From the IMG/VR virus record IMGVR_UViG_3300023500_000003, positions 1 through 58,768 of that record: a stretch of 58,768 nt of DNA. The stretch is one strand, 5' to 3'. The stretch is from a virus (taxonomy: Duplodnaviria > Caudoviricetes). Under the pieces are notes generated by a model. It saw only the letters and a program-made list of their open reading frames with translations, was not told the DNA's origin and did not search any database. Below are positions 16,220 to 57,187 of this stretch, piece by piece. Within the stretch, counting starts at the first letter, position 1. Each line of letters begins with the position of its first letter. Both the position numbers and the translations under genes were made by a program.

Positions 16220-16318
16220 TACTTGATATCTTCAAGTATATATGCATAATACGGCCTTGTAGAAGGTGAGAGTTCTACAAACCAAAACTAGAGGAGGCAC
16301 AAGATGCCACAATTCACG
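16220..16318 (+). promoter_or_regulatory. promoter cassette, copy 2
   Basis: identical to copy 1 over 83 bp; 16222-16318 identical to 35059-35155. Confidence 0.85.
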
Positions 16319-16867
16319 CCACAATTCGACGAAGGACTTCAAGGGTATGCTTGGAAGCAAGCGTATAAGAATCATTGGAAGGTCCGCAACACGCATGAAG
16401 TAGAAGACTTATTTCAAGAATACAGCCTGGTATTTGTTGACGCTGTTCACAGGTACAAAGAAAAAGCAACTAACCAACAGCATTTCATGGCTTTGTATAA
16501 AGCCTGCATCTTTACGCACACAGTGGACTTGGCAAGAGTCGCAACAAAAGAAGGTACGGCTATAACAGAATCTGATTTGCATGACGCCGAAGGAGAAGCT
16601 GTAAACTTGTATGACTCTGCAGTAGGTGAAGCCGACAATGTCGGAGAATTCTTGCATTACTTAACACAGGCTCCTGAAAATGTAAAGCGTGTGCTGGACT
16701 ACGTGTTTGGTACACCTGCTGCAGCGCTACTTGACGCTGAGGTGGCGTGGAAGGCTAAAGGTCGGAAAAAGGTCATGGGCAACACGTACCTCTGTCATCA
16801 ACTTGGAATCAAGGACCCCTATACAATAAATGTAGAACAAGAAACTAGGAAGTTCCTAACAGCCTAA
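16304..16867 (+). CDS. putative sigma-70-like (ECF-type region 2) factor
   Basis: EVEDLFQE..LVFVDAVHRY......F..LYK.CI....VDLAR resembles sigma region 2; region 4 HTH is weak (TYLCHQLGI). Confidence 0.5.
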   Translation: MPQFTPQFDEGLQGYAWKQAYKNHWKVRNTHEVEDLFQEYSLVFVDAVHRYKEKATNQQHFMALYKACIFTHTVDLARVATKEGTAITESDLHDAEGEAVNLYDSAVGEADNVGEFLHYLTQAPENVKRVLDYVFGTPAAALLDAEVAWKAKGRKKVMGNTYLCHQLGIKDPYTINVEQETRKFLTA

Positions 16868-18727: not shown

Positions 18728-21184
18728 GTGGGGCTCTTCTTCGAGGCACGTAAAAAGAAAGCGCGAAGTAAGCAAACTGTACCAGCTTCAGTTCTTACTG
18801 CGGGAGGGTGTAAAGTCTGCCCTCTTCGCAGGAAGGACAAGGTTGAGCCACAGGGTCATAAGAACCCTGATGTTTACATCTTGGGACACACGCCGTCTTC
18901 CTCTGATATCGCGTACGGGAAACATTTCGCAGGTGACTCTGCTTCTCTTGTACACCCACTGGTAAGACCAACAAGTGTACGCTTTGGTTTCATCCAAAAG
19001 AGTGCAGGTGAAGCACTTGCTGCCGTTATTTGTTGCAAGAAGCAAGTCATGGAAGACATAGAAAAGTCGAAACCCAAAGTCATCATCGGGTACGGCTGGA
19101 AGGTACTGAGTTGGATGTTACCTACAGCGTCGAACCTTGATGGTTACTGTGGTCGTAGGATCCCTGTAACTATAGGCAGCCACGAGTGCTGGTTTATACC
19201 AACATATGAGCCCTCCTACTTGTTGAAAACGCGTAAAAAGTCAAAAGCAGGAAGGATGTATCCATCTAAGAACGAGGACACGTACAAATGGAACATGCAA
19301 GAAGCACTGAATTTCGCCAAAACCTGTAAGCCACCAAAACTTGTTAACGCCAACGTAAGCGGGATTGTGTCTATCACAGGTAAGAAGGGTCGCGACTTTG
19401 ATAAACTCCACGCACAACTAAAACTACTAGGCGCTGCCCCGGTAGTAGGAGTGGATATAGAAACCACTGGGCTGGCTCCTTACAATTCTGACCAGAAAGT
19501 ACTAACAATCGCAATATCAGACGGCAAGACAACAGTCTCCTTTCCTGTTGACCATCCGAAAGGCTGGGCTACTGAGAAGCTGCAGAAGAAAGTAAGAAAG
19601 TTGCTGTTACAGTATTTACTTCTCCCCCAGGTGAAAGTTTGCCATAACACAGCATTTGAGCTGACGTGGCTGATGTTCAAACTTGGTATGAATAAGCCAG
19701 CAGTTCCTGACCACTGGGACGATACGATGGTTTACGGTTACCTACTTGACGAAAGGAAAGGAATGCTGAATCTCAATACGATGTGTATGGAGCACCTGGG
19801 GTTCTTCTTGAAACAGATGACTACTGTCAACGCGGCTGCGATACTGGACCAGAACTACAATGACGTGCTCGTGTACAATGGTCTCGATGCAAAATACACA
19901 GCCTTACTGCATGCTGTTGTCAAGCGCAAGCTTCCAAAAACCATGAAGGCAGCGCATGCTCGTTTGCTTCGTGCAACAGTCATGATCGCGCAAGTACAAA
20001 ACAATGGCGTCCCTTGCTGCCTTGAAGGACTTGACAGTGTGAGGAAGGAGTTCACAGCGAAAGCAGATAAGCACGAAGCCGCGTTTTTCGACTGCGTTGA
20101 AACTGAAAAGTACAAAAAGAAATACGGAAAGGACTGTAGCATCACAGCGCCTAAGGATGTTCTTAGGATGTTCACAGACGTGATGGGCTTCCCGTTATCC
20201 AGCTCTGACGAAGCTTCCCTCGAGTCTACCAATACAGAAGTAGGGGCTGCTGTAATCGGCCACAGGAAGGCGCAGAAAATCTTGTCTACTTACGTGACGG
20301 GCGTTGCAGACGTTATATACGATGATGGGCTGCTGCATCCAAACTACAGCCTAACACGCACAGCCACCGGTCGCACCTCTTGTGAGCGTTGCAACATGCA
20401 GAACTGGCCCAAGAGGAAAGGAAAACAAGTACGACGATCGATCAAGGTGAATGACGACGAGTGGCTACTTTCTGCTGACTACGGACAGATCGAAGCTCGT
20501 GTGATTGGTATGGCAGCGAAGGACAGAGTCTTCTGCAAAGCGTTGTGGGAGAACTTCGATATACATCTTGAATGGGCGGAGAAGATAGCATACGCGTTCC
20601 CTAGGGTTGTAGGAGGCAAGAAGTTCTTAAAGGACAAAAAAGCCATGGGTGGTTTCAGGTCAAAGATCAAGAATACGTGGGTGTTCCCCCTATTCTTCGG
20701 ATGCCAGCTATACACCGCAGCCAATGGAACAGGCCTTACTGAAGAAGAAGCGGAGCCTTTGTTCAACGAGTTCTGGGCAACCTTCTCCGACACTAAGGAG
20801 TGGCAAGAATCACTGTACAAAGAATACAAGAAGAACATGTATGTAGAAACATTGACAGGCAGACGGCGTAACGGTGTGCTGTCATTGAATGAAGTGGTAA
20901 ACACACCAATACAAGGAACTGCGTCAGATATTGTTGTTAATGCGATGTGCCGTATCTCAGAAGAAACCGACTACAACATCATCATGAACATTCATGACGA
21001 CATCACATCTAGGATACACGAGGACCACATAGATGCGGCAATAGAGGACATCGCAACGATTATGACAAACGCGCCCTTTGACTTCATCAACGTGCCATTA
21101 GCTATTGAAATGGAAGTAGGGAAGGACTGGGCTAACATGGAATCAATAGGAACCTTCACAACAAACCAAGGCTGGATCGACTAG
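18728..21184 (+). CDS. polA: family A DNA polymerase with N-terminal UDG-like domain
   Basis: UDG family-4-like N-terminus (CKVCPL, KPKVIIGYG, PTYEPSYLL); exo motifs DIETTG, HNTAFE, YNGLDA; pol motifs TATGRTS, DYGQIEAR, TLTGRRR, NTPIQGTASD, IHDDI. Confidence 0.93.
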   Translation: MGLFFEARKKKARSKQTVPASVLTAGGCKVCPLRRKDKVEPQGHKNPDVYILGHTPSSSDIAYGKHFAGDSASLVHPLVRPTSVRFGFIQKSAGEALAAVICCKKQVMEDIEKSKPKVIIGYGWKVLSWMLPTASNLDGYCGRRIPVTIGSHECWFIPTYEPSYLLKTRKKSKAGRMYPSKNEDTYKWNMQEALNFAKTCKPPKLVNANVSGIVSITGKKGRDFDKLHAQLKLLGAAPVVGVDIETTGLAPYNSDQKVLTIAISDGKTTVSFPVDHPKGWATEKLQKKVRKLLLQYLLLPQVKVCHNTAFELTWLMFKLGMNKPAVPDHWDDTMVYGYLLDERKGMLNLNTMCMEHLGFFLKQMTTVNAAAILDQNYNDVLVYNGLDAKYTALLHAVVKRKLPKTMKAAHARLLRATVMIAQVQNNGVPCCLEGLDSVRKEFTAKADKHEAAFFDCVETEKYKKKYGKDCSITAPKDVLRMFTDVMGFPLSSSDEASLESTNTEVGAAVIGHRKAQKILSTYVTGVADVIYDDGLLHPNYSLTRTATGRTSCERCNMQNWPKRKGKQVRRSIKVNDDEWLLSADYGQIEARVIGMAAKDRVFCKALWENFDIHLEWAEKIAYAFPRVVGGKKFLKDKKAMGGFRSKIKNTWVFPLFFGCQLYTAANGTGLTEEEAEPLFNEFWATFSDTKEWQESLYKEYKKNMYVETLTGRRRNGVLSLNEVVNTPIQGTASDIVVNAMCRISEETDYNIIMNIHDDITSRIHEDHIDAAIEDIATIMTNAPFDFINVPLAIEMEVGKDWANMESIGTFTTNQGWID

Positions 21185-28562: not shown

Positions 28563-28786
28563 TCGTGGCCCGTCCAGGAGACCTCGAGGCGCTCGTGGTG
28601 GAGCTTCTGTCCATGCCACTTGGGAGTATGATTGACACAAGGGCAGGAGCAATAACACGAACACACCAGCTGAAGTTCGCGATCACTCCTAACAATAAGA
28701 ATGCTGCACTCTTAGGAACTTTCTTCGAGCAGCAAAAATTCGACATCGAAGATATTTTTCTAGATACAGGAGATTTTGAAGGGTGA
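28559..28786 (+). CDS. hypothetical protein
   Basis: GTGA overlaps at both ends. Confidence 0.55.
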   Translation: MIVARPGDLEALVVELLSMPLGSMIDTRAGAITRTHQLKFAITPNNKNAALLGTFFEQQKFDIEDIFLDTGDFEG

Positions 28787-29700
28787 GGCGGCGTCCGGCA
28801 TTTCATAGCAATATCGCGTCTCCCGACAACAACAGAAGATTTGAAATACTCAGCATCCAGGCTGCAGCCACAGGCGACGTGGAGCAGCTTCTCCGCTGTA
28901 TCCGTGGCTTTGGTTACACCTCTGAAAAACTAGATATCGCGACGATGAAGTACATGGAGAGACTCCTGTCAAAACAGGAGATGGGCAACCACCTTACATG
29001 TTTGCGAGATCTGGGATATGCAGGCATGCGCAAGGTCACACCTAAACAGAGAAGTGACATCGCGTATCACTCGTCAGAAGTCGATGATGCTTTGGATTAC
29101 TGGGACTGTATGAAAACTAAGAACGCAGAACTTTCAACTGCGCTAGAAATACTTAGCATGACCTTAGTGATGGCTCCAAAGCTGCTGAAGAAATACTTAG
29201 CATCAGAGGCTTGCTCAGTTTCAAAGCTGGTGGTGTACGTATACGTTAAGAATACTATGAGGAGGAACAGGGAAATGACCGTAGGTCCCACAGAGACCAG
29301 GAAAGCACAAATGCTGCAAGCACTATGCACGAAGGAACCACTGCTTGCGGCCTTACTACTAGAAACAAAGAACGTGGCTACTTTCATGTTGTTTTGTTCC
29401 ATGTTTTCTAAAAAGACTATCGAGTTCCCAGACGTAGCAGACGTTGAAAAGCTCATCACAGCGGGTGCCACAAAGAGCCCAACAAAGCCAGCAATGCGCT
29501 ACCTTGCAGCAGCTAACAAGATCGAGGAGGGTGCAGAGGGACGGCCCATGATTTTGGAGACGTTCATACGGACGTCAGTTGAAGCGTTGGTAACAATGCA
29601 GGCGGCAACAGGGGACGCCATTGCGAGCAAGGTCGCTGACGCAACACTTGCCGAGCTACTTACAATTTACAGGGCTACAACAAAAGCGGGTACTATGTAA
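28783..29700 (+). CDS. hypothetical helical protein coupled to rpoC
   Basis: 305 aa; its TAA overlaps the ATG of the beta' gene. Confidence 0.75.
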   Translation: MRRRPAFHSNIASPDNNRRFEILSIQAAATGDVEQLLRCIRGFGYTSEKLDIATMKYMERLLSKQEMGNHLTCLRDLGYAGMRKVTPKQRSDIAYHSSEVDDALDYWDCMKTKNAELSTALEILSMTLVMAPKLLKKYLASEACSVSKLVVYVYVKNTMRRNREMTVGPTETRKAQMLQALCTKEPLLAALLLETKNVATFMLFCSMFSKKTIEFPDVADVEKLITAGATKSPTKPAMRYLAAANKIEEGAEGRPMILETFIRTSVEALVTMQAATGDAIASKVADATLAELLTIYRATTKAGTM

Positions 29701-32483
29701 TGCGGATGCTGCTGAAGATAATGACAGCTGAGAGTGTTAGGAGAAAGTCGTGCGGAGAAGTGACTGAGGTCAACGCGTACAAAGGATCTGTTCCTAGGGT
29801 AGGCGGTCTTTCATGCTTGCGGATCTTTGGGGCGACTGTGTCGTACAAGTGTGGGTGTGGTGCACTGGAGGGTGTGCACTACTTAGGGAACATCTGCGAT
29901 CACTGCGGTGTTGAAATAGCGCACAACTCGGTAAGAAGAAAAAGGTGGGGACATATCAACCTACCGATACACGTACTGCAGCCGATCTTGCTTGAACCTT
30001 TAGCTAGGGCACTGAAATTGTCACCAGCAGCTTTGAAAAAGATAGCTGTAGGGAAGGCGCGATTTTCGTTAGTAGATGGCCCTATACCAACAAGTATCGG
30101 AGGCATTCGAATTGTGCTTGATCGTGAAGGTGAAGGAACAGGCCCTGTAGATTTGCGAAGTCTGCTTGAGAAGGTAGAGTGGGAAAACCTTGAGTCGCAA
30201 ATCACGCCGGATATTGCGAAGTGTCTCTTCACGAACTGCGTGGGTGTGCTCCCTGCTGACCTCAGACCCGATTCGACTCCTAACAACGACGCCATAGAGC
30301 TTGACGCTATAACACACAAATACGTGTCAGTATTGAATGTGACTAGGGCCTACACCTCTTTGCACAGAGTGGCACCCTTTGTTCCTAAAATCTTAAAGGA
30401 GCTAGCCTTCGGGAGGATACAGGAAGCTGTTCTAAATCTAGTGTTAGGCAGAGGTACCAGTGTTGCACAGGAGGACCCAGGACTGCTTGACTTGCTAACA
30501 GGAAAATCAGGAATGCTCCGAAAAACTGCTCTTGGCAAACGTGTGGATTTCAGTGGCAGGACTGTACTAGGTGGTGCTCCCACGTCAGCTGTAGACCTGA
30601 TGCAACTGCCACGGCACATGGGTAGAGAGCTGTTCAAGCCTTTCATACTTCGTGAACTTGTAGGACAGCAGGGTTTCTCCTATAGAGAATCCTTGCAACT
30701 GTGGAAAGCAGACGCACAAGAAGCGCGTGTTGCGCTGGAGTCAGTAGCAACCTACAGGCGCGTGTTTGTCAACAGAAACCCTTCCCTTCATAAAGCAAGC
30801 GTTGTAGGACTTCGTGTTGAGATAACCGAGGATCTCTGTATGCACTTGCCACATTACGTGTACGCGGGTTTAGCTGCTGATGCTGACGGCGACACCCTCG
30901 CGATACACGTACCAATGTCTGAGGAAGCAATGCAGGAAACACAAACCTTGTTAGCGCCTGAGTACAACCTTCGAACACAAGCAGCAAAGGACCCTGCATA
31001 CGTACCTAGCCATGAATCACTTGGAGGACTGTACCACGCAACAAGCATCCAAGGGAAACCTGGTCCCAGTGTTTACAGAAGTATTGGAGAGCTTGAGATT
31101 CTATTGGACGCAGGAAAGATCAAGTCAAACACAGCTATAACGTGGAAAGAGATCGGGAAGTCTGCTGTTACTACAACCTTGGGGCGGCTAACAATCGCAG
31201 AAATGTGTGGACCGAAGGTGACTTGTGTTCTGGACAAGCAGAGCGTGAAAGAGTACGTGGATTTGATGGTAGAGTCTCTTGATCCGAAACAAGTACTTAT
31301 CGGGCTGCAGAAGCTGCAGGATTACGGCTACGCGGTAGTAACGAAGGCGGGAGTATCAATCGCCCTGCAAGACCTGAAACCACCTGCGAGCAGGGAGGAA
31401 GTATTCAGCAAAGCTAGGATCGCTGCTGAGGGGGCAAGCGTTGATGAGTTACACAGTATCTGGGAGGAAGCAATCGCCAAGGTCTACGCATCGTGGCAAG
31501 CTGAAGGCGGTGATGACCCATCGCATCCTGCGCACTTCTTTAATATCGCAGCAGGAAGATTGTCCGACATCCAAGTACGTCAGCTGATGGTGGCTAAAGG
31601 GCTACAAGCGAACTACAAAGAGGAGCTGCTCAACTTCGTGATAGAAGGATGCCTGAGTGAAGGGCTGTCAATACCTGATTATCTAAGATCCATGTCAGGG
31701 TCGAGGGCCTCACATATTGCTAAAATTGACGCTACACCGAAATCAGGATACATAGCCAGGAAACTTGTCCACATCGGCAGAGACCTGTACATCACAGGAT
31801 TCGACTGTGGGACTACAAACACATTGGATGTTAAAGAGGGGTATGGGAGGTACGACAGCTGTGGTATACAGATAACCACACACGGTAAAGCAAGTGTGAG
31901 GTCGCCTATCTTCTGTGAGGAAGGACAGGGTGTTTGCATCAAGTGTTACGGTGCTATTGGGAAGCTCCACCTTCTCCCTGTGCTGCATGAGCCTGTAGGC
32001 ATCTGCGCGGGGCAGTCCTTCTCTGAGCGTGCTACACAGAAGTCTTTGCAGAAAAAGCACTCAGGCGGCGCAGCTGGGGCAGAATCAGGGATCAATGCGA
32101 TGGATCACGCAGTTGAGCTGCAGGTCAAGTACAAGCACCTAAAGCTAGGAGAATGGTGTGACAATGCAAAAGAACTGTATTCTGTATTTTCAGCAATCGT
32201 AGGAACGTCAGTGGCTTCACAGCATAGTGAGACCCTTGTGCTTGGCATGAGCGCGTTGAGCCTCCAGGGTGACGAGTACGTGTACTGGGAGAAGTTCCCA
32301 GAAGGTAGGCAACTCCTGGGGGCTACATCTTTGATGCGCAGACACCCTTCATGGCTCCGTTCTATAGGATTTGGGTACGTTAAGGAGAAGTTGATATCAA
32401 CAGTGCTACAAGGGAAGACAACGCAGGAAGTGCCAGGGGAGTATATCTTCACAGGACTTCTCGACGTGGTGAGGGTGGAGTGA
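29700..32483 (+). CDS. rpoC: RNA polymerase beta' subunit, compact and divergent
   Basis: collinear with RpoC: RIFG..YKCGCG..CDHCGVE..RRKRWGHI, GKRVDFSGRTV, NRNPSLH, ADADGD, SGYIARKLV, DCGT..RSP..C..CIKCYG, trigger loop GQSFSERATQKSLQKKHSGG. Confidence 0.93.
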   Translation: MRMLLKIMTAESVRRKSCGEVTEVNAYKGSVPRVGGLSCLRIFGATVSYKCGCGALEGVHYLGNICDHCGVEIAHNSVRRKRWGHINLPIHVLQPILLEPLARALKLSPAALKKIAVGKARFSLVDGPIPTSIGGIRIVLDREGEGTGPVDLRSLLEKVEWENLESQITPDIAKCLFTNCVGVLPADLRPDSTPNNDAIELDAITHKYVSVLNVTRAYTSLHRVAPFVPKILKELAFGRIQEAVLNLVLGRGTSVAQEDPGLLDLLTGKSGMLRKTALGKRVDFSGRTVLGGAPTSAVDLMQLPRHMGRELFKPFILRELVGQQGFSYRESLQLWKADAQEARVALESVATYRRVFVNRNPSLHKASVVGLRVEITEDLCMHLPHYVYAGLAADADGDTLAIHVPMSEEAMQETQTLLAPEYNLRTQAAKDPAYVPSHESLGGLYHATSIQGKPGPSVYRSIGELEILLDAGKIKSNTAITWKEIGKSAVTTTLGRLTIAEMCGPKVTCVLDKQSVKEYVDLMVESLDPKQVLIGLQKLQDYGYAVVTKAGVSIALQDLKPPASREEVFSKARIAAEGASVDELHSIWEEAIAKVYASWQAEGGDDPSHPAHFFNIAAGRLSDIQVRQLMVAKGLQANYKEELLNFVIEGCLSEGLSIPDYLRSMSGSRASHIAKIDATPKSGYIARKLVHIGRDLYITGFDCGTTNTLDVKEGYGRYDSCGIQITTHGKASVRSPIFCEEGQGVCIKCYGAIGKLHLLPVLHEPVGICAGQSFSERATQKSLQKKHSGGAAGAESGINAMDHAVELQVKYKHLKLGEWCDNAKELYSVFSAIVGTSVASQHSETLVLGMSALSLQGDEYVYWEKFPEGRQLLGATSLMRRHPSWLRSIGFGYVKEKLISTVLQGKTTQEVPGEYIFTGLLDVVRVE

Positions 32484-32665
32484 TGGATCAATGGTCCCCG
32501 TATATACTAACAAAACTATGCCAGCAGCTAGACCTAAGCAGAGCAAAAACGCACTCGCTACTTGAGATGAAGACCACAGCAACAAAGGATCCACGTGGCG
32601 ATAGCGCAGTTAGCGCACCCTCCGTGGGCACAGGGAGGGTATTTTGGCTGCAAAAGAAAAAATGA
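32480..32665 (+). CDS. hypothetical protein
   Basis: overlaps rpoC stop and next ORF start. Confidence 0.4.
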   Translation: MMDQWSPYILTKLCQQLDLSRAKTHSLLEMKTTATKDPRGDSAVSAPSVGTGRVFWLQKKK

Positions 32666-36090: not shown

Positions 36091-36408
36091 ATGATGAACT
36101 GGCGAACAGATAAGCCACCCCAGGATGAAGGAACATTCATTGCAATGGTTGGGTACCCATGGCCAACAATCCTTATCTGGAATGAGTTTGATGAGGATTA
36201 TGCTTACGTTGAGATTGGCGCACAAGAATTGCAAGAATCACCGAATGCGCCTGTAAAAATGGACACATGGTTTGAAAGTGAACATTGCCGTGAAGATGAA
36301 ATTACACATTGGATGCCGATGCCCTCCCTGCCCCTATCATCTAAGATCAAGCGCAATGCGGAGAAGCTGAAAGCGAGGGATGACATGAAAAACGGCGCGA
36401 GGGCATGA
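36091..36408 (+). CDS. DUF551-family protein
   Basis: W...PP....I ... ITHWMPMPSLP. Confidence 0.75.
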   Translation: MMNWRTDKPPQDEGTFIAMVGYPWPTILIWNEFDEDYAYVEIGAQELQESPNAPVKMDTWFESEHCREDEITHWMPMPSLPLSSKIKRNAEKLKARDDMKNGARA

Positions 36409-38003
36409 ACCATGGAAAAGACTTTACCACTATGGAGCTCTTTTCGGGAGCTGGCGGCGGAATCCTCGCATCCAGAATCCTCGGACATAAGCCGCTTGTC
36501 GCAATCGAATGGGATGCCTACTGCTGCCAAGTCCTTAGAGAACGAGTTGCCGAGGGATGTTTCACTGGAATGCAAGTGCGCGAAGGGGACATCAGACTGC
36601 AAGATACATCCGAGTGGCATGGAAGAATATCTTGCATCAATGCGGGTTTCCCATGCACAGATATTAGCGTCGCCGGAAATCAGGCAGGCATTGGAGAAGG
36701 TACGCGGTCTGGACTTTACAAGGAAGTCCTTAGGATTGCCGATGAGGTACGACCTGAATACATCTTCCTGGAAAATGTCGCAGCAATCGTTACTGGAGCC
36801 AGCGGAGAATGGCTCAGAACCATCATTGGCGACCTTGCCGAGCGCGGGTATAGTGCGTGTTGGTGTACGCTCTCGGCGGCAGAAATAGGGGCGGCTCATA
36901 AACGTAATCGCTGGTGGTTGCTGGCATGGAGAGATAATGGTGAAAAGAAAATTAGCAAGTCAACGAAGATGCAAGAATTGCAGCAGGACATTTCAACCAA
37001 GAGCAGACTTGGTGAGTCAAGGGATGGGTATTTTTTGCGGCATGGAATGCTGTGCAGAATCAAAACGAGGCAGCAAATTAAGCGATTCGGAAATAGTTGC
37101 GATGTATCAAACAGGGTTGACTATGAAGCAGGTTGCGCAGAAAACTGGGATGGGTTGGAAGTCGGTACAGAGAAGGGTTCACGCTGCTGGTGTTGCAATC
37201 AACCCACACAAACGAGCAAAAGCAGAAAGGCCAAGTACGAGAGGAAGAAAGGTCTATCAGTGGGTGGCAGAAAAGAAGTATGGGAGAAGAACAAAAAAAG
37301 GGGAGTGCATTCACCATTTAAACCTGGATTGCACAGACAACGATCAGAGCAATCTGCTTATGATGGGGCTACGAGATCATGCGAAAGTACACCATCAGCT
37401 ACAGGGAGTAGTCTCAAATCTGATAAAAAGTGGGGTGATAGTGTTCAACGAGAAGAAAATGAGGTACGAGAATGCGACAGATTCGTAAATGTTTATCCGC
37501 TGCCCAAGTTGGTGCTGCCCACAAGCGAAACAGGTGGTGGCTCTTGGGCTACCCCAAACACGATGGATGTTCTGCCGCCGAAATCGGAGAAATCCCTACA
37601 CAGGGAAATGACGGTAACAAGGCCGGGCAGGAGCAGGCCAGCAAACCTCCGGGATCAGGTCAGCAATATGGACATGTGGGCTACCCCTCAAGCGAGGGAT
37701 TATCGGACAGGAGACAATCCAGAAGGCAAGCGTGCGAAAAGAAAGATAGAACAGGGTTGGACTCAGAATCTAAACGATCAGGTGAGGATGTGGCCAACGC
37801 CAAGCGCCTCGGACAATCGGGACAGAGGGAACGCAGCAACACCTGCGATACACAGAAGAATAGCGAAAGGAAAGCAAGTTATGTTATCCATGATGGTGAG
37901 CGAGACGAGCGACAGATTGAACCCCAAATTTGTGGAATGGTTGATGATGTGGCCGATAGGGTACACAATATGCAGGAAGTTCAAGAAGAAACGGAGGAAA
38001 TAA
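36405..38003 (+). CDS. C5-cytosine DNA methyltransferase, motifs I-VIII fused to W[AP]TP repeats and motif IX-like segment
   Basis: ELFSGAGG, GFPC, ENV, HKRNRWW; WATP/WATP/WPTP repeats; LNPKFVEWLMMWPIGY; no motif X in this frame. Confidence 0.88.
   Translation: MNHGKDFTTMELFSGAGGGILASRILGHKPLVAIEWDAYCCQVLRERVAEGCFTGMQVREGDIRLQDTSEWHGRISCINAGFPCTDISVAGNQAGIGEGTRSGLYKEVLRIADEVRPEYIFLENVAAIVTGASGEWLRTIIGDLAERGYSACWCTLSAAEIGAAHKRNRWWLLAWRDNGEKKISKSTKMQELQQDISTKSRLGESRDGYFLRHGMLCRIKTRQQIKRFGNSCDVSNRVDYEAGCAENWDGLEVGTEKGSRCWCCNQPTQTSKSRKAKYERKKGLSVGGRKEVWEKNKKRGVHSPFKPGLHRQRSEQSAYDGATRSCESTPSATGSSLKSDKKWGDSVQREENEVRECDRFVNVYPLPKLVLPTSETGGGSWATPNTMDVLPPKSEKSLHREMTVTRPGRSRPANLRDQVSNMDMWATPQARDYRTGDNPEGKRAKRKIEQGWTQNLNDQVRMWPTPSASDNRDRGNAATPAIHRRIAKGKQVMLSMMVSETSDRLNPKFVEWLMMWPIGYTICRKFKKKRRK
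36412..36888 (+). CDS. alternative-frame N-terminal part of MTase 'beta' polypeptide, truncated by HNH insertion
   Basis: open +1 frame inside MTase; SSWKMSQQSLL..SLATLPSAG; ends at the insertion point. Confidence 0.45.
   Translation: MEKTLPLWSSFRELAAESSHPESSDISRLSQSNGMPTAAKSLENELPRDVSLECKCAKGTSDCKIHPSGMEEYLASMRVSHAQILASPEIRQALEKVRGLDFTRKSLGLPMRYDLNTSSWKMSQQSLLEPAENGSEPSLATLPSAGIVRVGVRSRRQK
36937..37488 (+). mobile_element. HNH homing endonuclease nested in MTase
   Basis: CKNC..FC..CC, HTH, IHHLNLDCTDNDQSNL; GGAGAG RBS; flanked by recoded duplicate of motif VIII. Confidence 0.85.
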
Positions 38004-39408: not shown

Positions 39409-39534
39409 AGAACAGAATTAAAGCTATGGGCTTAAATTATACGACAGTTTATAGAATGCTATCAGATGGATATAAGCCGTTTGAGCCGCAAGCATGATAT
39501 ATTGGCGATATGGATAAAGATAGGGGATGGTTTG

Positions 39535-40227
39535 ATGAAATATGAAACAACCGGTGAAGTTTTTAAGTCCGGTCGTATAACACTAATAAACGACGACTGC
39601 ATGAATATATTAAAGCAAACACCTGACAATTACTATCACCTTTCTTGCGTCGATCCGCCGTTTGGGCTAGGCGAAAAACTAACGAGTGGGGGAACTTGGG
39701 CAGGAAAATACACATCTTCTGATAGTGCGTGGGATATTGCTCCGGGGAAGCCATATTTTGATGAGCTTAGGAGAGCGGCTGAAAATTGGATAGTATGGGG
39801 GGGAAATAATTTCACGCAGTTTTTGCCGCCAGCAAGATGTTTTTTAATATGGGACAAAGTTGCGAAAATGCAAACAATGGCAGACAGTGAACTGGCACTA
39901 ACATCTTTTGATAAAAACGCAAAAACTTTTTCTCATGTGCGTAATACAAGTGAAAGAAGAATACATTTATGCCAAAAACCTGTCAAACTCTATGAATGGC
40001 TCCTAACAAACTACGCTAACAAGGGTGATAGGATACTGGACACGCACTTGGGCTCAGGCTCAAGCGCAATCGCTGCGCATAATCTTGGGTTTGATTTCAC
40101 AGGAGTTGAGCTTGATCAAGACTATTTCAAGGCAGCAATCGCGCGGCTAGAGAATCATCAGAAACAGCCGACACTTTTTAGCCCACCTCTAACCAAGCCA
40201 GAACCCGAACAGGGGGCGCTATTATGA
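39535..40227 (+). CDS. DNA methyltransferase, N6-A/N4-C, beta class
   Basis: VDPPF, WGGN.F, IWDK, IH.CQKPV.LYEWLL, DTHLGSGSS, GVELD. Confidence 0.92.
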   Translation: MKYETTGEVFKSGRITLINDDCMNILKQTPDNYYHLSCVDPPFGLGEKLTSGGTWAGKYTSSDSAWDIAPGKPYFDELRRAAENWIVWGGNNFTQFLPPARCFLIWDKVAKMQTMADSELALTSFDKNAKTFSHVRNTSERRIHLCQKPVKLYEWLLTNYANKGDRILDTHLGSGSSAIAAHNLGFDFTGVELDQDYFKAAIARLENHQKQPTLFSPPLTKPEPEQGALL

Positions 40228-40363
40228 GCATCTGCATCAACAGCAGTATTGAATGCGAACGCGAAGCATCAACCATTGGCGGCTTGTGCCATGAATGCGA
40301 TAAGATACAGATGATGAACCCGGAAGACAGGGCTATTGCACGAGGAGGATGTCAACGAGATAT

Positions 40364-40387
40364 AAAAAAGGCGGCCCGAAGGCCGCC
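40364..40387 (-). terminator. intrinsic terminator
   Basis: minus strand GGCGGCC-TTCG-GGCCGCC-TTTTTT. Confidence 0.85.
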
Positions 40388-40427
40388 CATTGATTAAACT
40401 GACAAAATTTGCACGCTCAAGCGAATG

Positions 40428-40679
40428 CTAATTCAATGACTCGAGTATCAACGCCGCCGCTTCTTCGACTGTCATTGTCCTGCATTCCACCGCAAGCCAT
40501 GCAGCAGCGATCGGTGAGCACACCCGCGTTTGTTCTTTATTCATAGCGTGGCGGCCAGTTTCATATCCAGAAATTTGACATTGCATGATTGGGTCACGGC
40601 CTGTTTTCTCTGCCAGGAATATGCCAAACTCCGATTGTGTGATGCCCAATGCGCGGCGAGTTGTTTTTGCTAGGCTCAT
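40428..40679 (-). CDS. XRE-family HTH regulator
   Basis: RRALGITQSEFG..L....I.Q..ISGYETG. Confidence 0.8.
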   Translation of the reverse strand: MSLAKTTRRALGITQSEFGIFLAEKTGRDPIMQCQISGYETGRHAMNKEQTRVCSPIAAAWLAVECRTMTVEEAAALILESLN

Positions 40680-40680
40680 A

Positions 40681-40779
40681 TTAAAAACCGCCCTGTCCGA
40701 TTATGTAAGCTGTACCAAGCGTCAGCCAGAAGATAAGGCCACACGTGAACACTATTAAATCCTGCTTAAATTGTTGCAT
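40681..40779 (-). CDS. 32-aa membrane peptide (not in ORF track)
   Basis: MQQFKQDLIVFTCGLIFWLTLGTAYIIGQGGF*; AAGGGG RBS. Confidence 0.5.
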   Translation of the reverse strand: MQQFKQDLIVFTCGLIFWLTLGTAYIIGQGGF

Positions 40780-40852
40780 AATTTACCCCTTTTATGTATT
40801 TTAGCTCATAGACTGGCAGAGACGAACTCGTCTCAAGTGCGCTACTGTCAAG

Positions 40853-41047
40853 CTATGCTAGAATTGCCCTACAAAGCGCGTGCGCTTCCTGTTTGTCAAC
40901 TGCCGTTACGATTGCCTCAGTCCATTCTGACGCTAGATCGCCTTCCAGTACACGGCCAAACTGCCGCCTGTTTGACGATATGATTAGTTTATTTTTAAAC
41001 GTTGCCGCGTTGTAGCTGGCGTTGTTGAATATTGTTTTAGTCATCAT
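40853..41047 (-). CDS. hypothetical protein
   Basis: AAGGGG RBS. Confidence 0.55.
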   Translation of the reverse strand: MMTKTIFNNASYNAATFKNKLIISSNRRQFGRVLEGDLASEWTEAIVTAVDKQEAHALCRAILA

Positions 41048-41280
41048 TGTGTTGCCCCTTTTTGCAATCGCTTTGTTCCGATGTGCGAAGTATTACAGAA
41101 AGTGCAATATGTGTAAAGGGGGAAAGATTACACTATTAGTAATGATGGCAGTGTGAAAAGGCTTTTCATACGTGGGAGAAGCAACGGAAGCGGCGTGACC
41201 GAAAATTGCCTTTATAGAATAGAAATAAAATTGGGCTGGTCACAGGTGGCGTGGTAGCCCCCAGATAGAATGGGATGGTG

Positions 41281-41362
41281 CTTGCTATCTTCATGTATAT
41301 ATACATAATAAGGCGCTGTAGATGGTGAGAGTTCTACAAACTAAAGTTAGAGGAGGCACAAA
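41281..41362 (+). promoter_or_regulatory. promoter cassette, diverged copy 4
   Basis: CTTGCTATCTTCATGTATATATACATAAT..GTAGATGGTGAGAGTTCTACAAA..AGAGGAGGCACAAA. Confidence 0.8.
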
Positions 41363-41653
41363 ATGAGCCCATCTCAAAACATAGCTATCGGTCTACTCGT
41401 AGGCATCTCGATCACAGCTACTGCTGGAGGGACCTACATAGACAAGCTACACGCTGACAATCTGGCAATGCAGGACAAATGGCTAGACCAACGCTGGGAC
41501 AACAGGATGGACAGTTTACAGCTTGCTAAGTCTAGAGAATTCACGTACGACGACGTGTATGGCAAGCTCAACGCTGCTGGGTGGAGCGATGCCAGCGTTC
41601 GGAAGGCAGCGCTGATTTGTAGCATGGCAGTCTTCGGGGAGATTGACCAGTGA
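41363..41653 (+). CDS. hypothetical protein with N-terminal hydrophobic segment
   Basis: IAIGLLVGISITATAGG; follows cassette. Confidence 0.7.
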   Translation: MSPSQNIAIGLLVGISITATAGGTYIDKLHADNLAMQDKWLDQRWDNRMDSLQLAKSREFTYDDVYGKLNAAGWSDASVRKAALICSMAVFGEIDQ

Positions 41654-42183
41654 GGATTACCCAAGCAGAATTGAATGAACGCTTACATTATAATCCTGAT
41701 ACAGGAATCTTCACTTGGCTTCCTAGACCTATAAAATTATTTGCTAGCACACGTGCTGGTAAAACGTGGAATACTAGATTTGCTGATAAACCTGCCGGGA
41801 GTATTCAAAAAATAACAGGATACTTACGAATAACCATTGATAGGAAGTTATACAAGTCTCATAGACTAGCATTTCTCTATATGTTAGGGGGGTTTCCAAA
41901 AGATCAAGTAGACCACATAAACCATATCCCTGATGATAATAGATGGGAGAACTTACGTGAAGTAAGCCACCAAGAAAACCAGAGGAATCTGTCTCTACGT
42001 AGAAATAATAAATCAGGACACGTTGGCGTGAGCTGGCATAAGCAGGGAAAGAAATGGCAGTCACGTATAAGAGTATCTGGTAAATTTATTCACCTAGGAT
42101 TATTTACTGATAAAGCCGATGCAGTTAAAGCAAGACAGGAAGCCAGTATAAAATATGGATATCATGAAAACCACGGGACGTAG
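41650..42183 (+). mobile_element. HNH-AP2 homing endonuclease
   Basis: YNPDTG.FTW; HRLAFLY; VDHINH..DDNRWENLRE..ENQRN; AP2 domain SGHVGVSW..KW..RI..HLG.F. Confidence 0.92.
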
Positions 42184-42330
42184 GTAGAATCTGTCTAATT
42201 AACCGGCTCATACACTCAAACTGGACTCATACAGCTACGGTGACCGCATTTGAATTACTTTTCCATGGTAACATATGCATTTTGACCTAAGTGAACGAAG
42301 GCGCAAATCTAAAGGACAGCAGTGGATGAA

Positions 42331-42353
42331 GAATCACTAGTTGTAGAGTATGT
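42331..42353 (+). promoter_or_regulatory. phage promoter-like motif
   Basis: GAATC-ACTAGTTGTAG-AGTATGT then AAGGAG. Confidence 0.6.
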
Positions 42354-42380
42354 ACGTTTGAACCAAGAGGAAGGAGAAAG

Positions 42381-42581
42381 ATGATGGCAATTATTGCAAG
42401 TTTGTTGGGAGTGGCAGCAGCAGTTCTAGTGTGTTGGTTGCGTCCGGGTCAAGGCAAAATCAAGAAGAGTACGTCGCCTGCAGCTACCGCGGCCAACGTA
42501 CGGGGAAACTGCTCCGTCTGCGGTAGGATAACTTGGGGGACGTCAGAAGCAGCACGCCTTCAATGTAAGAATCACAAATGA
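42381..42581 (+). CDS. small membrane-anchored Zn-finger protein
   Basis: N-terminal TM; CSVC...C..H. Confidence 0.55.
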   Translation: MMAIIASLLGVAAAVLVCWLRPGQGKIKKSTSPAATAANVRGNCSVCGRITWGTSEAARLQCKNHK

Positions 42582-42758
42582 AAGTTGAATTTGAAGAAGC
42601 AGGGAATGATTTTGTCAGGTGTTTGACGTGTTTGAAAATCATCAGAAAGGGTCAAGAGTACCGGCATTCTTATTGCAGTGGCGGGAGCAAGAAGCCGTCA
42701 TTGCATTATGCTTTCCTTCCTAGTAAAAAGTGAAAGGGATGTCAGACGTTAATTCAAC

Positions 42759-42788
42759 AAAAAAAAGGGAGCCGCGTTAACGGCTCCC
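42759..42788 (-). terminator. intrinsic terminator ending the late operon
   Basis: GGGAGCCG-N6-CGGCTCCC followed by T8 on minus strand; at the strand convergence point. Confidence 0.85.
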
Positions 42789-42794
42789 CTCAGT

Positions 42795-43316
42795 TCAACT
42801 AGCCACGGCAGCTTTAGCAGCTTCAACAGCTTCAGATTTTGCTTTTTGTCTAGCGGTATAAGCTACACGTGCATTCTCTTTCTGCTTCTCGTCGAAAGCT
42901 TCTGCAGCGGCCAATACTTTATCAGCACGCTCGGCAGCATTCTTCTTTTCTTCAATAGCAAGTTCTGCTTCAATACCTTTGATAGACTTCTGGAGTAGCG
43001 ATACTTGATTGTTGCTGTCTTGAATAGTCTGACGTAATGCTTCGAAGTCTTTCTTCATCTGGGCTTGGTGTGTCCGAGCAAGATCCAGATTACAAGTAGT
43101 TTCCGCCAGCCTTGCTTTCAGTGGGCTAGTATCGGACGTGGACATCGTCTGTACACCCGGAAATGACTGTACGATAGTTTTCACTCTATTAGCATCACGC
43201 GCATCAATACTACAGTGTTCACCGACGCCTAGGATGATTGATCCCGTGTGGTAGAAGTTTAAGCGAAGCATCGCTGTGCCGTTATTGATAATCTCGATTT
43301 GATCTTGTGCAGCCAT
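42795..43316 (-). CDS. hypothetical coiled-coil protein
   Basis: AAGGAGG RBS; heptad-rich C-terminal half. Confidence 0.75.
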   Translation of the reverse strand: MAAQDQIEIINNGTAMLRLNFYHTGSIILGVGEHCSIDARDANRVKTIVQSFPGVQTMSTSDTSPLKARLAETTCNLDLARTHQAQMKKDFEALRQTIQDSNNQVSLLQKSIKGIEAELAIEEKKNAAERADKVLAAAEAFDEKQKENARVAYTARQKAKSEAVEAAKAAVAS

Positions 43317-48617: not shown

Positions 48618-50363
48618 CTACTCCGGTAGATATAGTAATCCTTTCATGTTAGGAAATAATCTTTCAGTGGTCATCAACCTCTCACCCGTGAGCTCCTGCG
48701 GATGTGTTATAATAGTCGGGTGGATGAATATCATGAGATTGACTTTATTAGTCTTGTTCTCAGTTTGTGCAAACAGTCTCCCTGCAAAAGGGATGTCACC
48801 AAGGAGGGGAATCCCCGCTGTAGTGTCGGTATCAGAATTTTGTACCAACCCACCCAATACTAGTATCCCGCCATCCTCAGCTACTGCTATTGTTTTTAAT
48901 GACCTCTTGTTGGTTATGATATCAGAGGCTATTGTGGAAGGGGAGATGGAGCTGATTTCTTGCTCGATAATTAGTTCAATATCTCCATTTCCTAATGCAC
49001 GAGGGGTGACTACAAGAGACAGTCCCACATCTTTTCTTTCTATTGTTTGGAAAGGATTAGCACCCTGAGTGCCCCCCTGACTTCCAGTAACGAATGGAAC
49101 ATTCTGGCCTACGGAGAGTCTTGCTTCTTCATTACTCAAGACAAGCACGGACGGTACCGATAAGATGTTGGCCTCGGTATTAACTTTCAAAGCCTTCAAA
49201 ATACCGCCAAAAGATAGCGGGTTACCAGTGAACAATCCCACTACTAGACTTTTTCCAGTATCTAGGAGCTGATCTCCAATGGCAACATTCCCTGCACCGA
49301 CCCCTCCGCCAGCTGTAGGGGAGTTGTTTAGAACCCAGTCAATTCCAAACGCCAGTGAAGTATCTCCCGCTACTTCAACTATAATCATCTCTACTAGTAT
49401 CTGCTGCCTGGGTGTATCTAATTTGGATATTAGCAATCTAATCTTTTTCTTGCTGCCTTCTGGTCCGGACAGGACTATGGCGTTCCGGATCTTGTCTACC
49501 GCTATCTCCACTTCTTTGGTAAGGGAGGGCAATGTTGATAGGACGGACAGTACATTATCAGCTTTAGTATGCTCGACCAGAATAAGCTCTACTCGAGATA
49601 AGGATACCGGAGTAGGAGGAAGGTCTACCGCTTTCATCATAGTTACTGCATTTGTAACTGCTGATCTAGCACCTACCAATATTAAAGTATTGTTTACAGT
49701 ATTAGCAATCACCCTCACTTCGTTTTCTTGGTAGAGGGTTTTCACAGATAAAGCTGCTACATCTGCATTCACATTCTTCAATTGAATGACCCTAATAGTA
49801 TTAGCGGAAGACGAGTCAAGTACTTGCAGCAGTGAATACATCTTCTTAATGTTTACGCCGCTATCAGTAATGATGATCATTCCTAACCCCAATGGAGTTA
49901 TAAGTTTCCCATCACGGGATAGGAGAGGTGTGATTATAGCCGCCGCCTTTGTTGGCGAGATGTATAGTAGATTATAAATGGAGGTTACTATATTCTCGCC
50001 TGAGATACCGCCAATACCACCATTTGCTGCAATTCTCGGAACTATCTTCAGGTATCCATTATTCTCAACCGACGTCAGACGGTTCATCTCAAGCACTGAA
50101 TCTAGGAGCAAGCGAAGTTGAGGTTTGGACATACCATTAGTCACATGTACGGTTACTTCCCCTGAAACCTGCTTATCCAGTAGTACGTTCAGATTCAGTA
50201 TTTTTGACACTAGAAGGATAAAACCTTTCAACTCCACCTTGTCAACATTTAGAGTTATCAGATCTGATTTTACCACGCCGGCACCCTCTGCAGAATGCCC
50301 AAAGGTTATCAGTCCTAATAGTACTAGAAAGACTGCTAGTACTTTGGTCGCTCTGTCCATCAT
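48618..50363 (-). CDS. gspD: GspD-type outer-membrane secretin
   Basis: signal peptide; N0 domain (FI..VS..L..N.LLD..VSG.VTV); three N repeats; LDTPRQQILVE.IIVEV; NILSVPS..L.NEEA...VGQNVPF; IERKDVG..L.VTP; GIPLLGDIP..GRLF; NLMIFIHPTII. Confidence 0.93.
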   Translation of the reverse strand: MMDRATKVLAVFLVLLGLITFGHSAEGAGVVKSDLITLNVDKVELKGFILLVSKILNLNVLLDKQVSGEVTVHVTNGMSKPQLRLLLDSVLEMNRLTSVENNGYLKIVPRIAANGGIGGISGENIVTSIYNLLYISPTKAAAIITPLLSRDGKLITPLGLGMIIITDSGVNIKKMYSLLQVLDSSSANTIRVIQLKNVNADVAALSVKTLYQENEVRVIANTVNNTLILVGARSAVTNAVTMMKAVDLPPTPVSLSRVELILVEHTKADNVLSVLSTLPSLTKEVEIAVDKIRNAIVLSGPEGSKKKIRLLISKLDTPRQQILVEMIIVEVAGDTSLAFGIDWVLNNSPTAGGGVGAGNVAIGDQLLDTGKSLVVGLFTGNPLSFGGILKALKVNTEANILSVPSVLVLSNEEARLSVGQNVPFVTGSQGGTQGANPFQTIERKDVGLSLVVTPRALGNGDIELIIEQEISSISPSTIASDIITNKRSLKTIAVAEDGGILVLGGLVQNSDTDTTAGIPLLGDIPFAGRLFAQTENKTNKVNLMIFIHPTIITHPQELTGERLMTTERLFPNMKGLLYLPE

Positions 50364-52856: not shown

Positions 52857-54200
52857 TTAATATTTAGTCATCTCGAATACATTACTTACGAAGGCGTTAT
52901 TCAGTATGCCAGTAAACTTGTACCTGGAAATACCATCAGACCAATACAGAGTTTGGTAATCACCACTGATGGTGAGACTGAGGCTTATATCGAGCCAAAC
53001 AGGTACAAAAGTAGAACCAAGACTCCCCGCCCTAGCCTGTGACTGAGTTCCTGATGATATATGAGATAGTGTAACACTATCTGACAGATTGATACTGCCA
53101 CCAACCCCATCGTTGTAGCGCCACTCAAAGTACCTGTTACCAGCAGGGGTAAAGCGGAACTCGTAATTATCAATCATTACTACGTTTACGCCAGAATCAG
53201 CAATCACGTATACGGAACTTCCTGCTGATGTACTGCCTGTTACTGACCACACTGCTGCTCCCGGTGTCGCATTGGTACAGGTGTATGATATTCCTGCGGA
53301 GGTGTCAATCCAGACGGAGCCAGCAGTATAACCTAGGCTGCTGTCATCTGTTATGGCAGGAGGTACTACGGATACCAAGTTATTAGCTATTGACGCGCTC
53401 GTTACGTTCTGGCTAGGGATTTCAGTTAATGACATGTAGGCGCCGTAGACGTCCACGTCGACCTCACTAAAAGCAGAAGATATTATCAGAGTGATAACAT
53501 CGCCAGCTGACAAACTTAGATGCGCTGTGGCAGAGCAAGCGTTAGGGTTATTTGCAATCGCTGAAGTCACTGCGATTACCGTGGATGCGATACCATTAAC
53601 ATGAAGGGTGGCTGTTTTGATATTGGACAGTGCACGGAAGGATGCTCCCAGAGATACCGTATAGTTGCCTGAACGAGCGACGGTCATGCTATTTGTTGCG
53701 GTTGCTACTATGATACCAACGGCGGTTCCTGGAGCGGTATCGAATTCAGCAGTATAAGGGAAAACTACGTTTGTGATTCCAGTAGAGTCCGACACTGATC
53801 CGAAGTGTAGTGCTTGTGCTACTGCTACCGGGCCTCCCGCTGAGATACTCCATACAGCAGCACCAACAGAATTATCCAAGCAGACGTAGCTAGTATCTGT
53901 GGCTGTATCTACCCACGTGGAGCCTACTTCATATAGAGAGGCGGCGTCGTCTGTGATTGCTGGGGCTACGGTAGCCACCATGTTTGATTTCACTGCGTCT
54001 GAGATGCGAACCCAGTGAGCGTCTGTACCCACTGCTGGAATAATTGAGATTCCATTATTGAGATATCCAGCACTTACTTCAAAACGGAACAGTGCGTCCA
54101 GCTCAGCGATGTGGGCTAATTCGTTTGGGCGGCCTACTAGGGCTGCGGCAACAATAGTTGTGATGTTTAGATTGCTTATTTGGTTCTGGTTGAGGCTCAT
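52857..54200 (-). CDS. virion fibre/decoration protein
   Basis: NQNQI..LVGRPNE N-terminal domain; two P.ITDD...Y..GS.W.DT...Y.C....GAAVW repeats; AGGAGG RBS. Confidence 0.75.
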   Translation of the reverse strand: MSLNQNQISNLNITTIVAAALVGRPNELAHIAELDALFRFEVSAGYLNNGISIIPAVGTDAHWVRISDAVKSNMVATVAPAITDDAASLYEVGSTWVDTATDTSYVCLDNSVGAAVWSISAGGPVAVAQALHFGSVSDSTGITNVVFPYTAEFDTAPGTAVGIIVATATNSMTVARSGNYTVSLGASFRALSNIKTATLHVNGIASTVIAVTSAIANNPNACSATAHLSLSAGDVITLIISSAFSEVDVDVYGAYMSLTEIPSQNVTSASIANNLVSVVPPAITDDSSLGYTAGSVWIDTSAGISYTCTNATPGAAVWSVTGSTSAGSSVYVIADSGVNVVMIDNYEFRFTPAGNRYFEWRYNDGVGGSINLSDSVTLSHISSGTQSQARAGSLGSTFVPVWLDISLSLTISGDYQTLYWSDGISRYKFTGILNNAFVSNVFEMTKY

Positions 54201-54257
54201 TTCATACCCTCCTGAAGGGATAGAAGAGGGGCTTTTCAACCCCTCTTCCTAGATAGT
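54201..54257 (-). promoter_or_regulatory. conserved intergenic hairpin + RBS (paralogue at 57131-57187)
   Basis: ACTATCTAGG-hairpin-TATCCCTT.AGGAGGGTATGAA in both; stem sequences differ but pairing is kept. Confidence 0.6.
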
Positions 54258-57129: not shown

Positions 57130-57130
57130 T

Positions 57131-57187
57131 TTCATACCCTCCTTAAGGGATAGGACAGGGCCGTAGTAGCCCTGCCCCTAGATAGTC
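57131..57187 (-). promoter_or_regulatory. conserved intergenic hairpin + RBS
   Basis: GGCAGGGC-TACTACG-GCCCTGTC stem within the same flanks as 54201-54257. Confidence 0.6.

Follow-up and report, generated by a model that had tools for sequence, protein, structure and literature searches.

Can a phage make use of the β′ subunit of a bacterial-type RNA polymerase when its genome holds no gene for the β subunit? This question is raised by the IMG/VR virus record IMGVR_UViG_3300023500_000003, a linear contig of 58,768 nucleotides, which was analysed over its whole length and is called the window below. A β′-like catalytic subunit gene (P0001) was identified at positions 29700-32483 of the + strand, which starts with ATG and encodes one unsplit protein of 927 amino acids (aa). 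The active site needs two double-psi β-barrels, of which β′ supplies one, and a conserved, apparently catalytic β′ in genomes without β cannot work alone. The new result is that P0001 belongs to a β′ clade found only in phages, and that no β was found in the clade members with whole genome records (eight isolates). P0001 could be a working catalytic β′ which pairs with the β subunit of the host, the window phage itself lacking β; this is held as a real possibility, a little short of an even chance.

A bacterial-type β′ subunit in the window

P0001 is a real β′ homolog of the RpoC/Rpb1 superfamily, in which the fold and the catalytic residues are kept. In a phmmer search of all PDB chains it matched bacterial β′ with E 1.9e-71, through the collinear query stretches 7-133, 175-712 and 730-795. 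Rpb1 domain 2 (6e-19) and Rpb1 domain 5 (2.6e-11) were above the Pfam cut-off, and Rpb1 domain 1 (7e-8, 32.5 bits) was under its cut-off of 39.7. Rpb1 domains 3 and 4 were not called by Pfam at E<=0.01, but the region is still collinear with bacterial β′. An AlphaFold2 model, for which a 51-row alignment was used as input, had a mean predicted local distance difference test score (pLDDT) of 86 and a predicted template modelling score (pTM) of 0.80, and Foldseek matched it to bacterial β′ chains with E 4e-58 and TMq 0.79-0.84 in the top ten matches. The best viral fold matches were BFVD entries of 1127 and 1192 aa, which are the lengths of the β′ proteins of phages RHph_Y65 and Va2, and the best PHROG match was phrog_25354 (3.2e-72), annotated as 'unknown function'. 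The β′ regions account for the whole length of P0001 in one open reading frame (ORF). An earlier sequence-only reading of this DNA had described a 927-aa ORF collinear with RpoC at 29700-32483, and the ORF listing, the phmmer matches to PDB and the AlphaFold and Foldseek results bear this out.

For the β subunit, the window gave no PF00562 candidate at E<=10 and no PF04560 candidate. A phage-β hidden Markov model (HMM), built from 251 phage and bacterial β segments and run with --max on ORFs of at least 80 aa, had its best window match at E 9.6. The β-free flanks of the β′ gene extend over 29 kb upstream and 26 kb downstream. The sequence-only reading had noticed no rpoB-like ORF and had proposed an HMM search for β domains; with PF00562, PF04560 and the phage-β HMM run on the 58.8-kb contig, no β was found. 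The CheckV completeness of this contig is 41%, so the 58 kb without β spans under half of the genome.

The same reading had set the protein apart from the pieces of phiKZ-type enzymes and from the single chains of YonO and crAss-like phages, which stands, as P0001 is unsplit, of bacterial type and β′ only. Like P0001, the enzymes of phiKZ and AR9 are homologous to bacterial β′ and belong to large lytic phages, but their β′ and β are each made of two or three proteins, usually in two sets (PMC7598289, PMC7824862), whereas the window has one unsplit β′ and no β was found. YonO of SPβ and gp66 of crAss-like phages share with P0001 the double-psi β-barrel superfamily and the DxDGD metal site. In these enzymes both barrels lie in one chain (PMC7824862), whereas P0001 is collinear with β′ only, and no β-profile match at E<=10 was seen in it for a second (β-type) barrel.

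Relatives of P0001, their active site and the search for β

One close relative, P0002 (922 aa, on a 14.4-kb contig), was found by a word-indexed search, the other matches of which were all cellular β′. It has 43-44% identity to P0001, concentrated in the functional motifs. In an exhaustive phmmer search, P0002 and about 28 cluster representatives (683-1584 aa) matched with E 1e-120 to 1e-76, above all cellular β′ (~1e-70). Among isolated phages, tblastn with P0001 matched RHph_Y65-type Rhizobium phages (29.5% identity, 94% of the query), the Escherichia phages EP_H11 and IME392, the Vibrio phages 1.031.O, Va2 and 150E35-1, RP13 and two Acinetobacter phages, with weaker matches to Carin-5 and YerA41. 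No close relative was found when P0001 alone or the alignment of P0001 and P0002 was searched against viral, metagenome and genome collections; the sole sizeable match of these searches was L121, a β′ adjoining β on a 95-kb contig. A back-translated clade motif was also run over IMG/VR, and none of the four loci obtained was a β′.

The first tree contained 79 rows, namely P0001, 27 representatives, 5 rows of β-less isolates, 29 rows of β-encoding phages and 17 cellular rows, aligned to the clade profile with P0138 (a fragment) and P0145 left out. The rows of β-encoding phages came from 77 β-bearing loci (Carin-5 and 76 from IMG/VR), from which 30 were picked and one fragment was dropped. P0001, all 27 representatives and the five β-less-isolate rows were separated from everything else with a Shimodaira-Hasegawa-like approximate likelihood ratio test (SH-aLRT) support of 100, and the same split was obtained with SH-aLRT 97 in a 41-row tree (LG+C20+F+G4, quick search). 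The placement of P0001 in a phage-only β′ clade with RHph_Y65, Va2, 1.031.O and EP_H11 is well supported by these alignments, and the phylogeny against RpoC, which the sequence-only reading had suggested as a check, puts this clade apart from cellular β′.

The large terminase gene (1270-3189, + strand), at the left end of the window, also matches the β-less isolates. Its phmmer matches were RHph_Y65 (4.8e-96), EP_H11 (1.5e-81), 1.031.O (5.6e-59) and Va2 (2.8e-49), and by tblastn it reached 262-318 bits to RHph phages, Ab1-TPeters, RP13, phiLo, IME392 and EP_H11, and 227-230 bits to Carin-5 and YerA41. No match was obtained with the terminase as query against IMG/VR. Besides the terminase, very few window genes match the four isolates at E<=1e-3, so the relationship to the β-less isolates is deep.

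The β′ proteins of RHph_Y65 (EVB97_326, Kleczkowskaviridae), Va2, 1.031.O, EP_H11 and IME392, which are annotated only, belong to phrog_25354 and to the same clade as P0001. The β-less isolates resemble the window in a related terminase, in having no β found, and in a family A DNA polymerase in the neighbourhood. P0001 differs from their β′ proteins by an identity of only ~30% and by being 200-340 aa shorter, mainly in the segment after the trigger loop; the Asn of the NADFDGD motif is lost in P0001 and kept in four isolates. In addition, the β′ of several isolates is split into two genes, unlike P0001. The split lies near residue 450, with small ORFs between the halves, in EP_H11 (L004), RP13 (L123), 150E35-1 (L124), Ab1-TPeters (L125) and IME392 (L131), and in EP_H11 the C-terminal half stands upstream of the N-terminal half.

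No PF00562 match at E<=10 was found in any of the eight isolate records, which are RHph_Y65, Va2, 1.031.O, EP_H11, RP13, 150E35-1, Ab1-TPeters and IME392. The record of RHph_Y65 is circular with 206.8 kb, and that of Ab1-TPeters is circular too. PF04560 gave nothing meaningful in seven β-less isolates. The phage-β HMM, run with --max on 1366 ORFs of at least 80 aa from four β-less genomes, had a best E of 0.2; its top two matches were chance-like, having no β-like alignment and being mutually unrelated, and the third was the β′ of RHph_Y65 itself. With the β of Carin-5 as tblastn query, 38 records were matched, none of them a β-less isolate. No ORF with at least two of four β motifs was present in the four β-less genomes or the window, in a test which only 33 of 82 true β ORFs pass.

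As positive controls, the β of Carin-5 was found at 4e-40, directly downstream of β′, and β was also found in D69. All of the 39 IMG/VR contigs searched (from 50 loci) contained β, and in 76 of 80 IMG/VR loci a β ORF was no more than 10 kb away from β′, the misses being three giant-virus contigs and L086. In the phage lineages of this analysis, β was placed downstream of β′ or fused ahead of it as ORFs of ~1900-2900 aa. The sequence-only reading gave rpoB directly before rpoC as the normal order, which is right for bacteria but not for these phage lineages. Fused β-β′ ORFs of 1944-2894 aa were common in uncultivated phage contigs, for example L028, L036, L069 and L073. The 55.6-kb circular record of vB_AbaM_3098 (L132) has only the C-terminal half of β′, lacking the catalytic half as well as β, and it is either a partial record or a gene remnant; the phiLo record contains neither β nor β′.

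The zinc sites, bridge helix and trigger loop named in the sequence-only reading were all located in the sequence, the alignments and the model of P0001. From the N-terminus, the first Zn site is formed by C51, C53, C66 and C69 (29850-29906, + strand like all features of the gene), and the clade alignment shows these Cys columns with a conservation of 90% or more. A helical hairpin of residues 203-249 (30306-30446), with model helices 203-224 and 230-249, stands at the position of the β′ clamp helices in the collinear alignment, to which σ mainly binds in bacteria. LGKRVDFSGR is found at residues 278-287. The catalytic loop AADADGD (residues 392-398, 30873-30893), which corresponds to bacterial NADFDGD, keeps the three Asp and has lost the Asn and the Phe. 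The bridge helix (residues 658-693, 31671-31778) was recognised in the alignment and the model. It is followed by the second Zn site (C703, C739, C746 and C749; 31806-31946), with a span of 46 aa compared with a cellular median of 84, and by trigger-loop helix 1 (31995-32060), which ends in QKSLQKKH (780-787); this motif retains the His but has Gln in place of Arg and Lys in place of Phe. Both AADADGD with its Asp triad and QKSLQKKH had been read correctly from the sequence.

Across the clade, D394, D396, G397 and D398 are invariant in 28 of 28 sequences, as are the Arg/Lys motifs that contact RNA and DNA (hybrid-binding), and the trigger-loop His is kept in every sequence. The NADFDGD Asn is changed to Ala or Gly in five of the 28 (P0001, P0002, P0123, P0139 and P0146), and the trigger-loop Arg is lost in eight of the 28. 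The change of the trigger-loop Phe to Lys was seen in 8/28 representatives and 3/4 isolates, and in none of 30 rows of β-encoding phages or 10 alignable cellular rows. In E. coli, the NADFDGD Asn and the trigger-loop Arg and Phe contact the incoming nucleoside triphosphate (NTP), and the Asn helps to reject deoxynucleoside triphosphates. Because these NTP-contacting residues are altered, P0001 may differ from bacterial β′ in substrate choice or rate. Two other β′ proteins of the clade, P0122 and P0130, carry intein-like insertions of several hundred residues in the trigger loop, between TQ and MRTFH.

The segment from trigger-loop helix 1 to the C-terminal conserved region (32070-32231) is shortened to 54 aa in P0001 and 56 aa in P0002, where the other clade members have a median of 191.5 aa and cellular β′ a median of 304 aa. 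About 137 aa are absent from P0001 here, presumably (by position) at the place of the jaw and of trigger-loop insertions, and all other segment lengths match the clade. Compared with cellular β′, the whole clade is shorter by the last ~40 aa and by roughly half of the Zn2 insert. P0001 is the most reduced clade member seen and, lacking the jaw region and having an altered NTP-contacting set, would be a natural case of a minimal β′.

Possible partners of the β′ subunit

The active site of multisubunit RNA polymerases consists of two double-psi β-barrels, one of them from β′ (PMC7824862). Since β′ carries one of the two barrels, the most likely partner is the β of the host, and since this is the only β available in the eight isolate records, the simplest mechanism is a hybrid core. 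The phage β′ would assemble with host β and presumably also with host α2 into a core that transcribes the phage genome, and a phage σ-like factor (ORF 16304-16867) may guide it there. Loss of the jaw region and the changed NTP-contacting residues may adapt the enzyme to the phage DNA, which is possibly modified. An argument for catalysis is that a clade as deep as this has conserved the Asp triad, the bridge helix and the hybrid-binding residues. Confidence for the window phage is held down by the incompleteness of the contig and by a possible branching of P0001 ahead of the β-less isolates.

With somewhat less assurance, it is possible that a whole lineage of large lytic phages (the RHph_Y65, Va2, 1.031.O, EP_H11, IME392, RP13 and Ab1-TPeters types and the window contig) kept the β′ half only and swaps it into the host enzyme. 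A DNA-binding clamp, downstream-DNA channel and σ-docking site owned by the phage would let the hybrid read phage DNA, which is often heavily modified, and answer a phage σ. If true, this would be a host takeover by replacement of the catalytic subunit, undescribed for any virus in the literature searched. The sequence-only reading had called such a subunit swap not known to be described; literature searches, of which subscription journals and supplementary tables were not a part, yielded no paper on this mechanism, on a phage β′ without β or on a hybrid enzyme. A parallel in outcome, if the hybrid core is right, would be phiEco32 with its σ gp36 and gp79, in which parts of the host core are redirected to phage promoters, but factors of this type bind the intact host core (PMC12276001), while P0001 would exchange the catalytic subunit itself.

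Several points weigh against the pairing with host β. The mixture-model tree has P0001 and P0002 as sister to the other 19 clade rows (support 81), the approximately unbiased (AU) test does not reject a position of the pair outside the other 31 rows (p 0.462), and the branch leading to the pair is long (1.09-1.45). P0001 and P0002 are thus possibly sister to the rest, and the β-less state of the isolates is not confidently projectable onto the window phage. The check for β in the clade covered eight isolate records and the window, which make up a minor part of it. The contig is incomplete, its structural genes are largely missing, and β might be encoded elsewhere in the genome. Profile searches are blind to a second-barrel partner which has diverged past recognition. 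In addition, the NADFDGD Asn and the trigger-loop Arg, which in bacteria matter for catalysis and NTP choice, are missing from P0001, and an enzyme containing it may work slowly or serve a purpose different from ordinary transcription. Finally, the bacterial core enzyme is stable, so that a swap would need host β and α newly made during infection.

Among the other explanations, the most serious is an ordinary two-subunit phage RNA polymerase, the β of which would be encoded in the ~59% of the genome outside the contig; a β in this unsequenced part is a serious rival, though an unlikely one. The low completeness and the possible early branching of P0001 and P0002 speak for it, and compact β′ proteins of ~880-930 aa also exist in β-bearing IMG/VR lineages. 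Carin-5 and YerA41, related phages with modified thymidine in their DNA, carry both β′ and β, and for YerA41 β, β′ and σ are reported and found in virions (PMC7354516). They share with the P0001 contig a full-length bacterial-type β′, a UDG-family A polymerase and the same terminase family (PMC13697223, PMC12686479), and a σ factor is reported for YerA41 (PMC7354516) and annotated in Carin-5. However, unlike the window they have a 927-aa β directly downstream of β′, and their β′ proteins fall outside the clade of P0001. In the β-bearing lineages β is adjacent or fused (76/80 loci within 10 kb, 39/39 contigs), and here none is present within 26-29 kb; both β′ and terminase are nearest to the β-less isolates, not to Carin-5 and YerA41.

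The sequence-only reading had left two options, a β elsewhere or a subunit that assembles with host α2β. The comparative evidence leans to the second, because the nearest isolates by β′ and terminase are without β and the β-bearing lineages have it adjacent or fused, while the 41% contig and the possible sister placement hold a verdict back.

A wholly phage-encoded enzyme could also arise, even in the β-less isolates, if the partner is a phage second-barrel protein diverged past sequence recognition, like YonO and crAss gp66, which is improbable. Single-chain phage enzymes with barely recognisable barrels do exist (PMC7824862, PMC10201439), and each β-less genome has many proteins of unknown function. 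Against this, no phage β′ in this analysis is more like the bacterial one than P0001 (E 1e-71 to PDB chains), and in every β-encoding lineage checked β is as detectable as β′; the β HMM with --max reached only E 0.2, and the weak motif test (33/82 true β pass) gave no ORF with at least two of the four motifs. One candidate for such a partner is a conserved ORF of ~215 aa, which lies a short way ahead of β′ in RHph_Y65 and in three Vibrio phages, but it has no PDB match, was not found in the window and is probably too small for a β core.

This ORF lies at 11096-11752 in L001 (RHph_Y65), 10182-10823 in L002, 7235-7870 in L003 and 4205-4840 in L124, and in Va2 a small ORF intervenes between it and β′. 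The copies of RHph_Y65 and 1.031.O had no Pfam match, and the profile without PDB match was built from four copies.

Slightly more doubtful still is a role as decoy or regulator, in which the protein would shut down host transcription by sequestering host σ, host β or further partners. P0001 is without the NADFDGD Asn and Phe and the trigger-loop Arg, and it retains the hairpin at the σ-binding clamp-helix position, which would suit such a role. A decoy, however, needs none of the Asp triad, bridge helix, trigger-loop His and hybrid-binding Arg/Lys, which are kept in 28/28 sequences, and P0001 and P0002 retain the catalytic features at 44% overall identity. A decaying relic without function is hardly credible: the active-site substitutions are unusual, but the frame is open over 927 codons and coupled in translation to the adjacent ORFs, the fold prediction is confident, and the 44%-identical relative has the same length and the same motifs conserved.

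In the reviews consulted, phage multisubunit RNA polymerases are split, paired or single-chain, and always with both barrels (PMC7598289, PMC7824862), and two papers on related phages leave the β′ gene undiscussed (PMC11242549, PMC12656882). If host β is the partner, transcription would be reprogrammed by exchanging the catalytic subunit instead of adding a σ factor or an inhibitor. If host β is not the partner, a second-barrel protein is still to be discovered. Both outcomes would be new, and the question is open to a direct test, since a number of the β-less relatives are in culture and grow on hosts that are tractable in the laboratory.

A σ-like ORF and the gene setting of the contig

σ factors act on a core enzyme that includes β. 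The ORF at 16304-16867 (+ strand, 187 aa) probably encodes a phage factor of the σ70/ECF (extracytoplasmic function) type, a lead that comes from weak but concordant signals. Sigma70_r2 was matched with E 7.2e-4 in a six-frame search and with 0.034 (below the cut-off) by hmmscan. The Atlas feature score to a σ70-family cluster was 0.96, and σ clusters dominate the structure matches (TM 0.3-0.5). The search for σ region 4 scored two candidates, neither of them with E<=1, and no homolog was found beyond a 99%-identical copy. The best PDB chain was the ECF-like σ of phiEco32, with a non-significant E of 0.24; its PDB entry was identified through PMC12276001. In two of the β-less Vibrio phages, a single ORF of 263-267 aa carries both region 2 and region 4 of a clear σ70-family factor.

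The β′ gene comes after SbcCD, inside a run of overlapping ORFs. Upstream, a 305-aa ORF without family match (28783-29700, + strand) overlaps the β′ ATG with its stop by one base, and because stop and start share a base the two are probably co-translated. Downstream, a 61-aa ORF (32480-32665, + strand) has a 4-base overlap with the β′ stop. Neither the 305-aa ORF nor a neighbouring 224-aa ORF had any Pfam, PHROG or profile match. Both were compared with the conserved 215-aa ORF of the other phages as possible counterparts and were unrelated to it. A promoter and terminator scan around the β′ gene gave sites no more frequent than in shuffles.

A replication and recombination block on the + strand contains SF1 and DnaB-like helicases, an SNF2 helicase, a primase, FEN, a clamp loader, a gp32-like protein, RecA/UvsX, a PDDEXK nuclease, SbcCD and the UDG-family A polymerase. 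The last (18728-21184, + strand) is by Pfam a family A DNA polymerase with an N-terminal domain of the UDG superfamily. This fusion is described for phages with modified thymidine, namely YerA41, Carin-5, RP13, RHph_TM30, EP_H11 and IME392 (PMC13697223, PMC12686479); in the main text of both papers RNA polymerase is unmentioned. Genes for thymidine hypermodification were not seen among the window annotations. Three DNA methyltransferases were identified on the + strand (5367-6404, 36405-38003 and 39466-40227), two of the N6/N4 type and one of the C5 type, which indicates methylation, not thymidine hypermodification, for the window phage. In the C5 methyltransferase the Pfam match covers residues 7-226 of 532, leaving a long C-terminal extension without assignment.

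Portal, capsid and tail-core genes were not seen in the window annotation, which fits a genome fragment. At the right end, on the - strand, three probable fibres of 787, 460 and 958 aa are encoded (50400-52763, 52857-54239 and 54259-57135). The 787-aa protein has six stretches of collagen triple-helix repeats, and the 460- and 958-aa ORFs have repeated-stretch matches to phrog_33012. Beside these fibre-like genes lies a 581-aa secretin (48618-50363, - strand; PF00263 1.1e-44, Secretin_N and GspD N0 domain). Proteins of this kind are familiar from filamentous phages and secretion systems, and this one is an odd passenger in an otherwise tailed-phage-like contig. The gene orientation changes from + to - at about 40000-43000, with a sign change of the GC skew at ~42 kb, and an HNH endonuclease ORF (41650-42183) is located near this switch.

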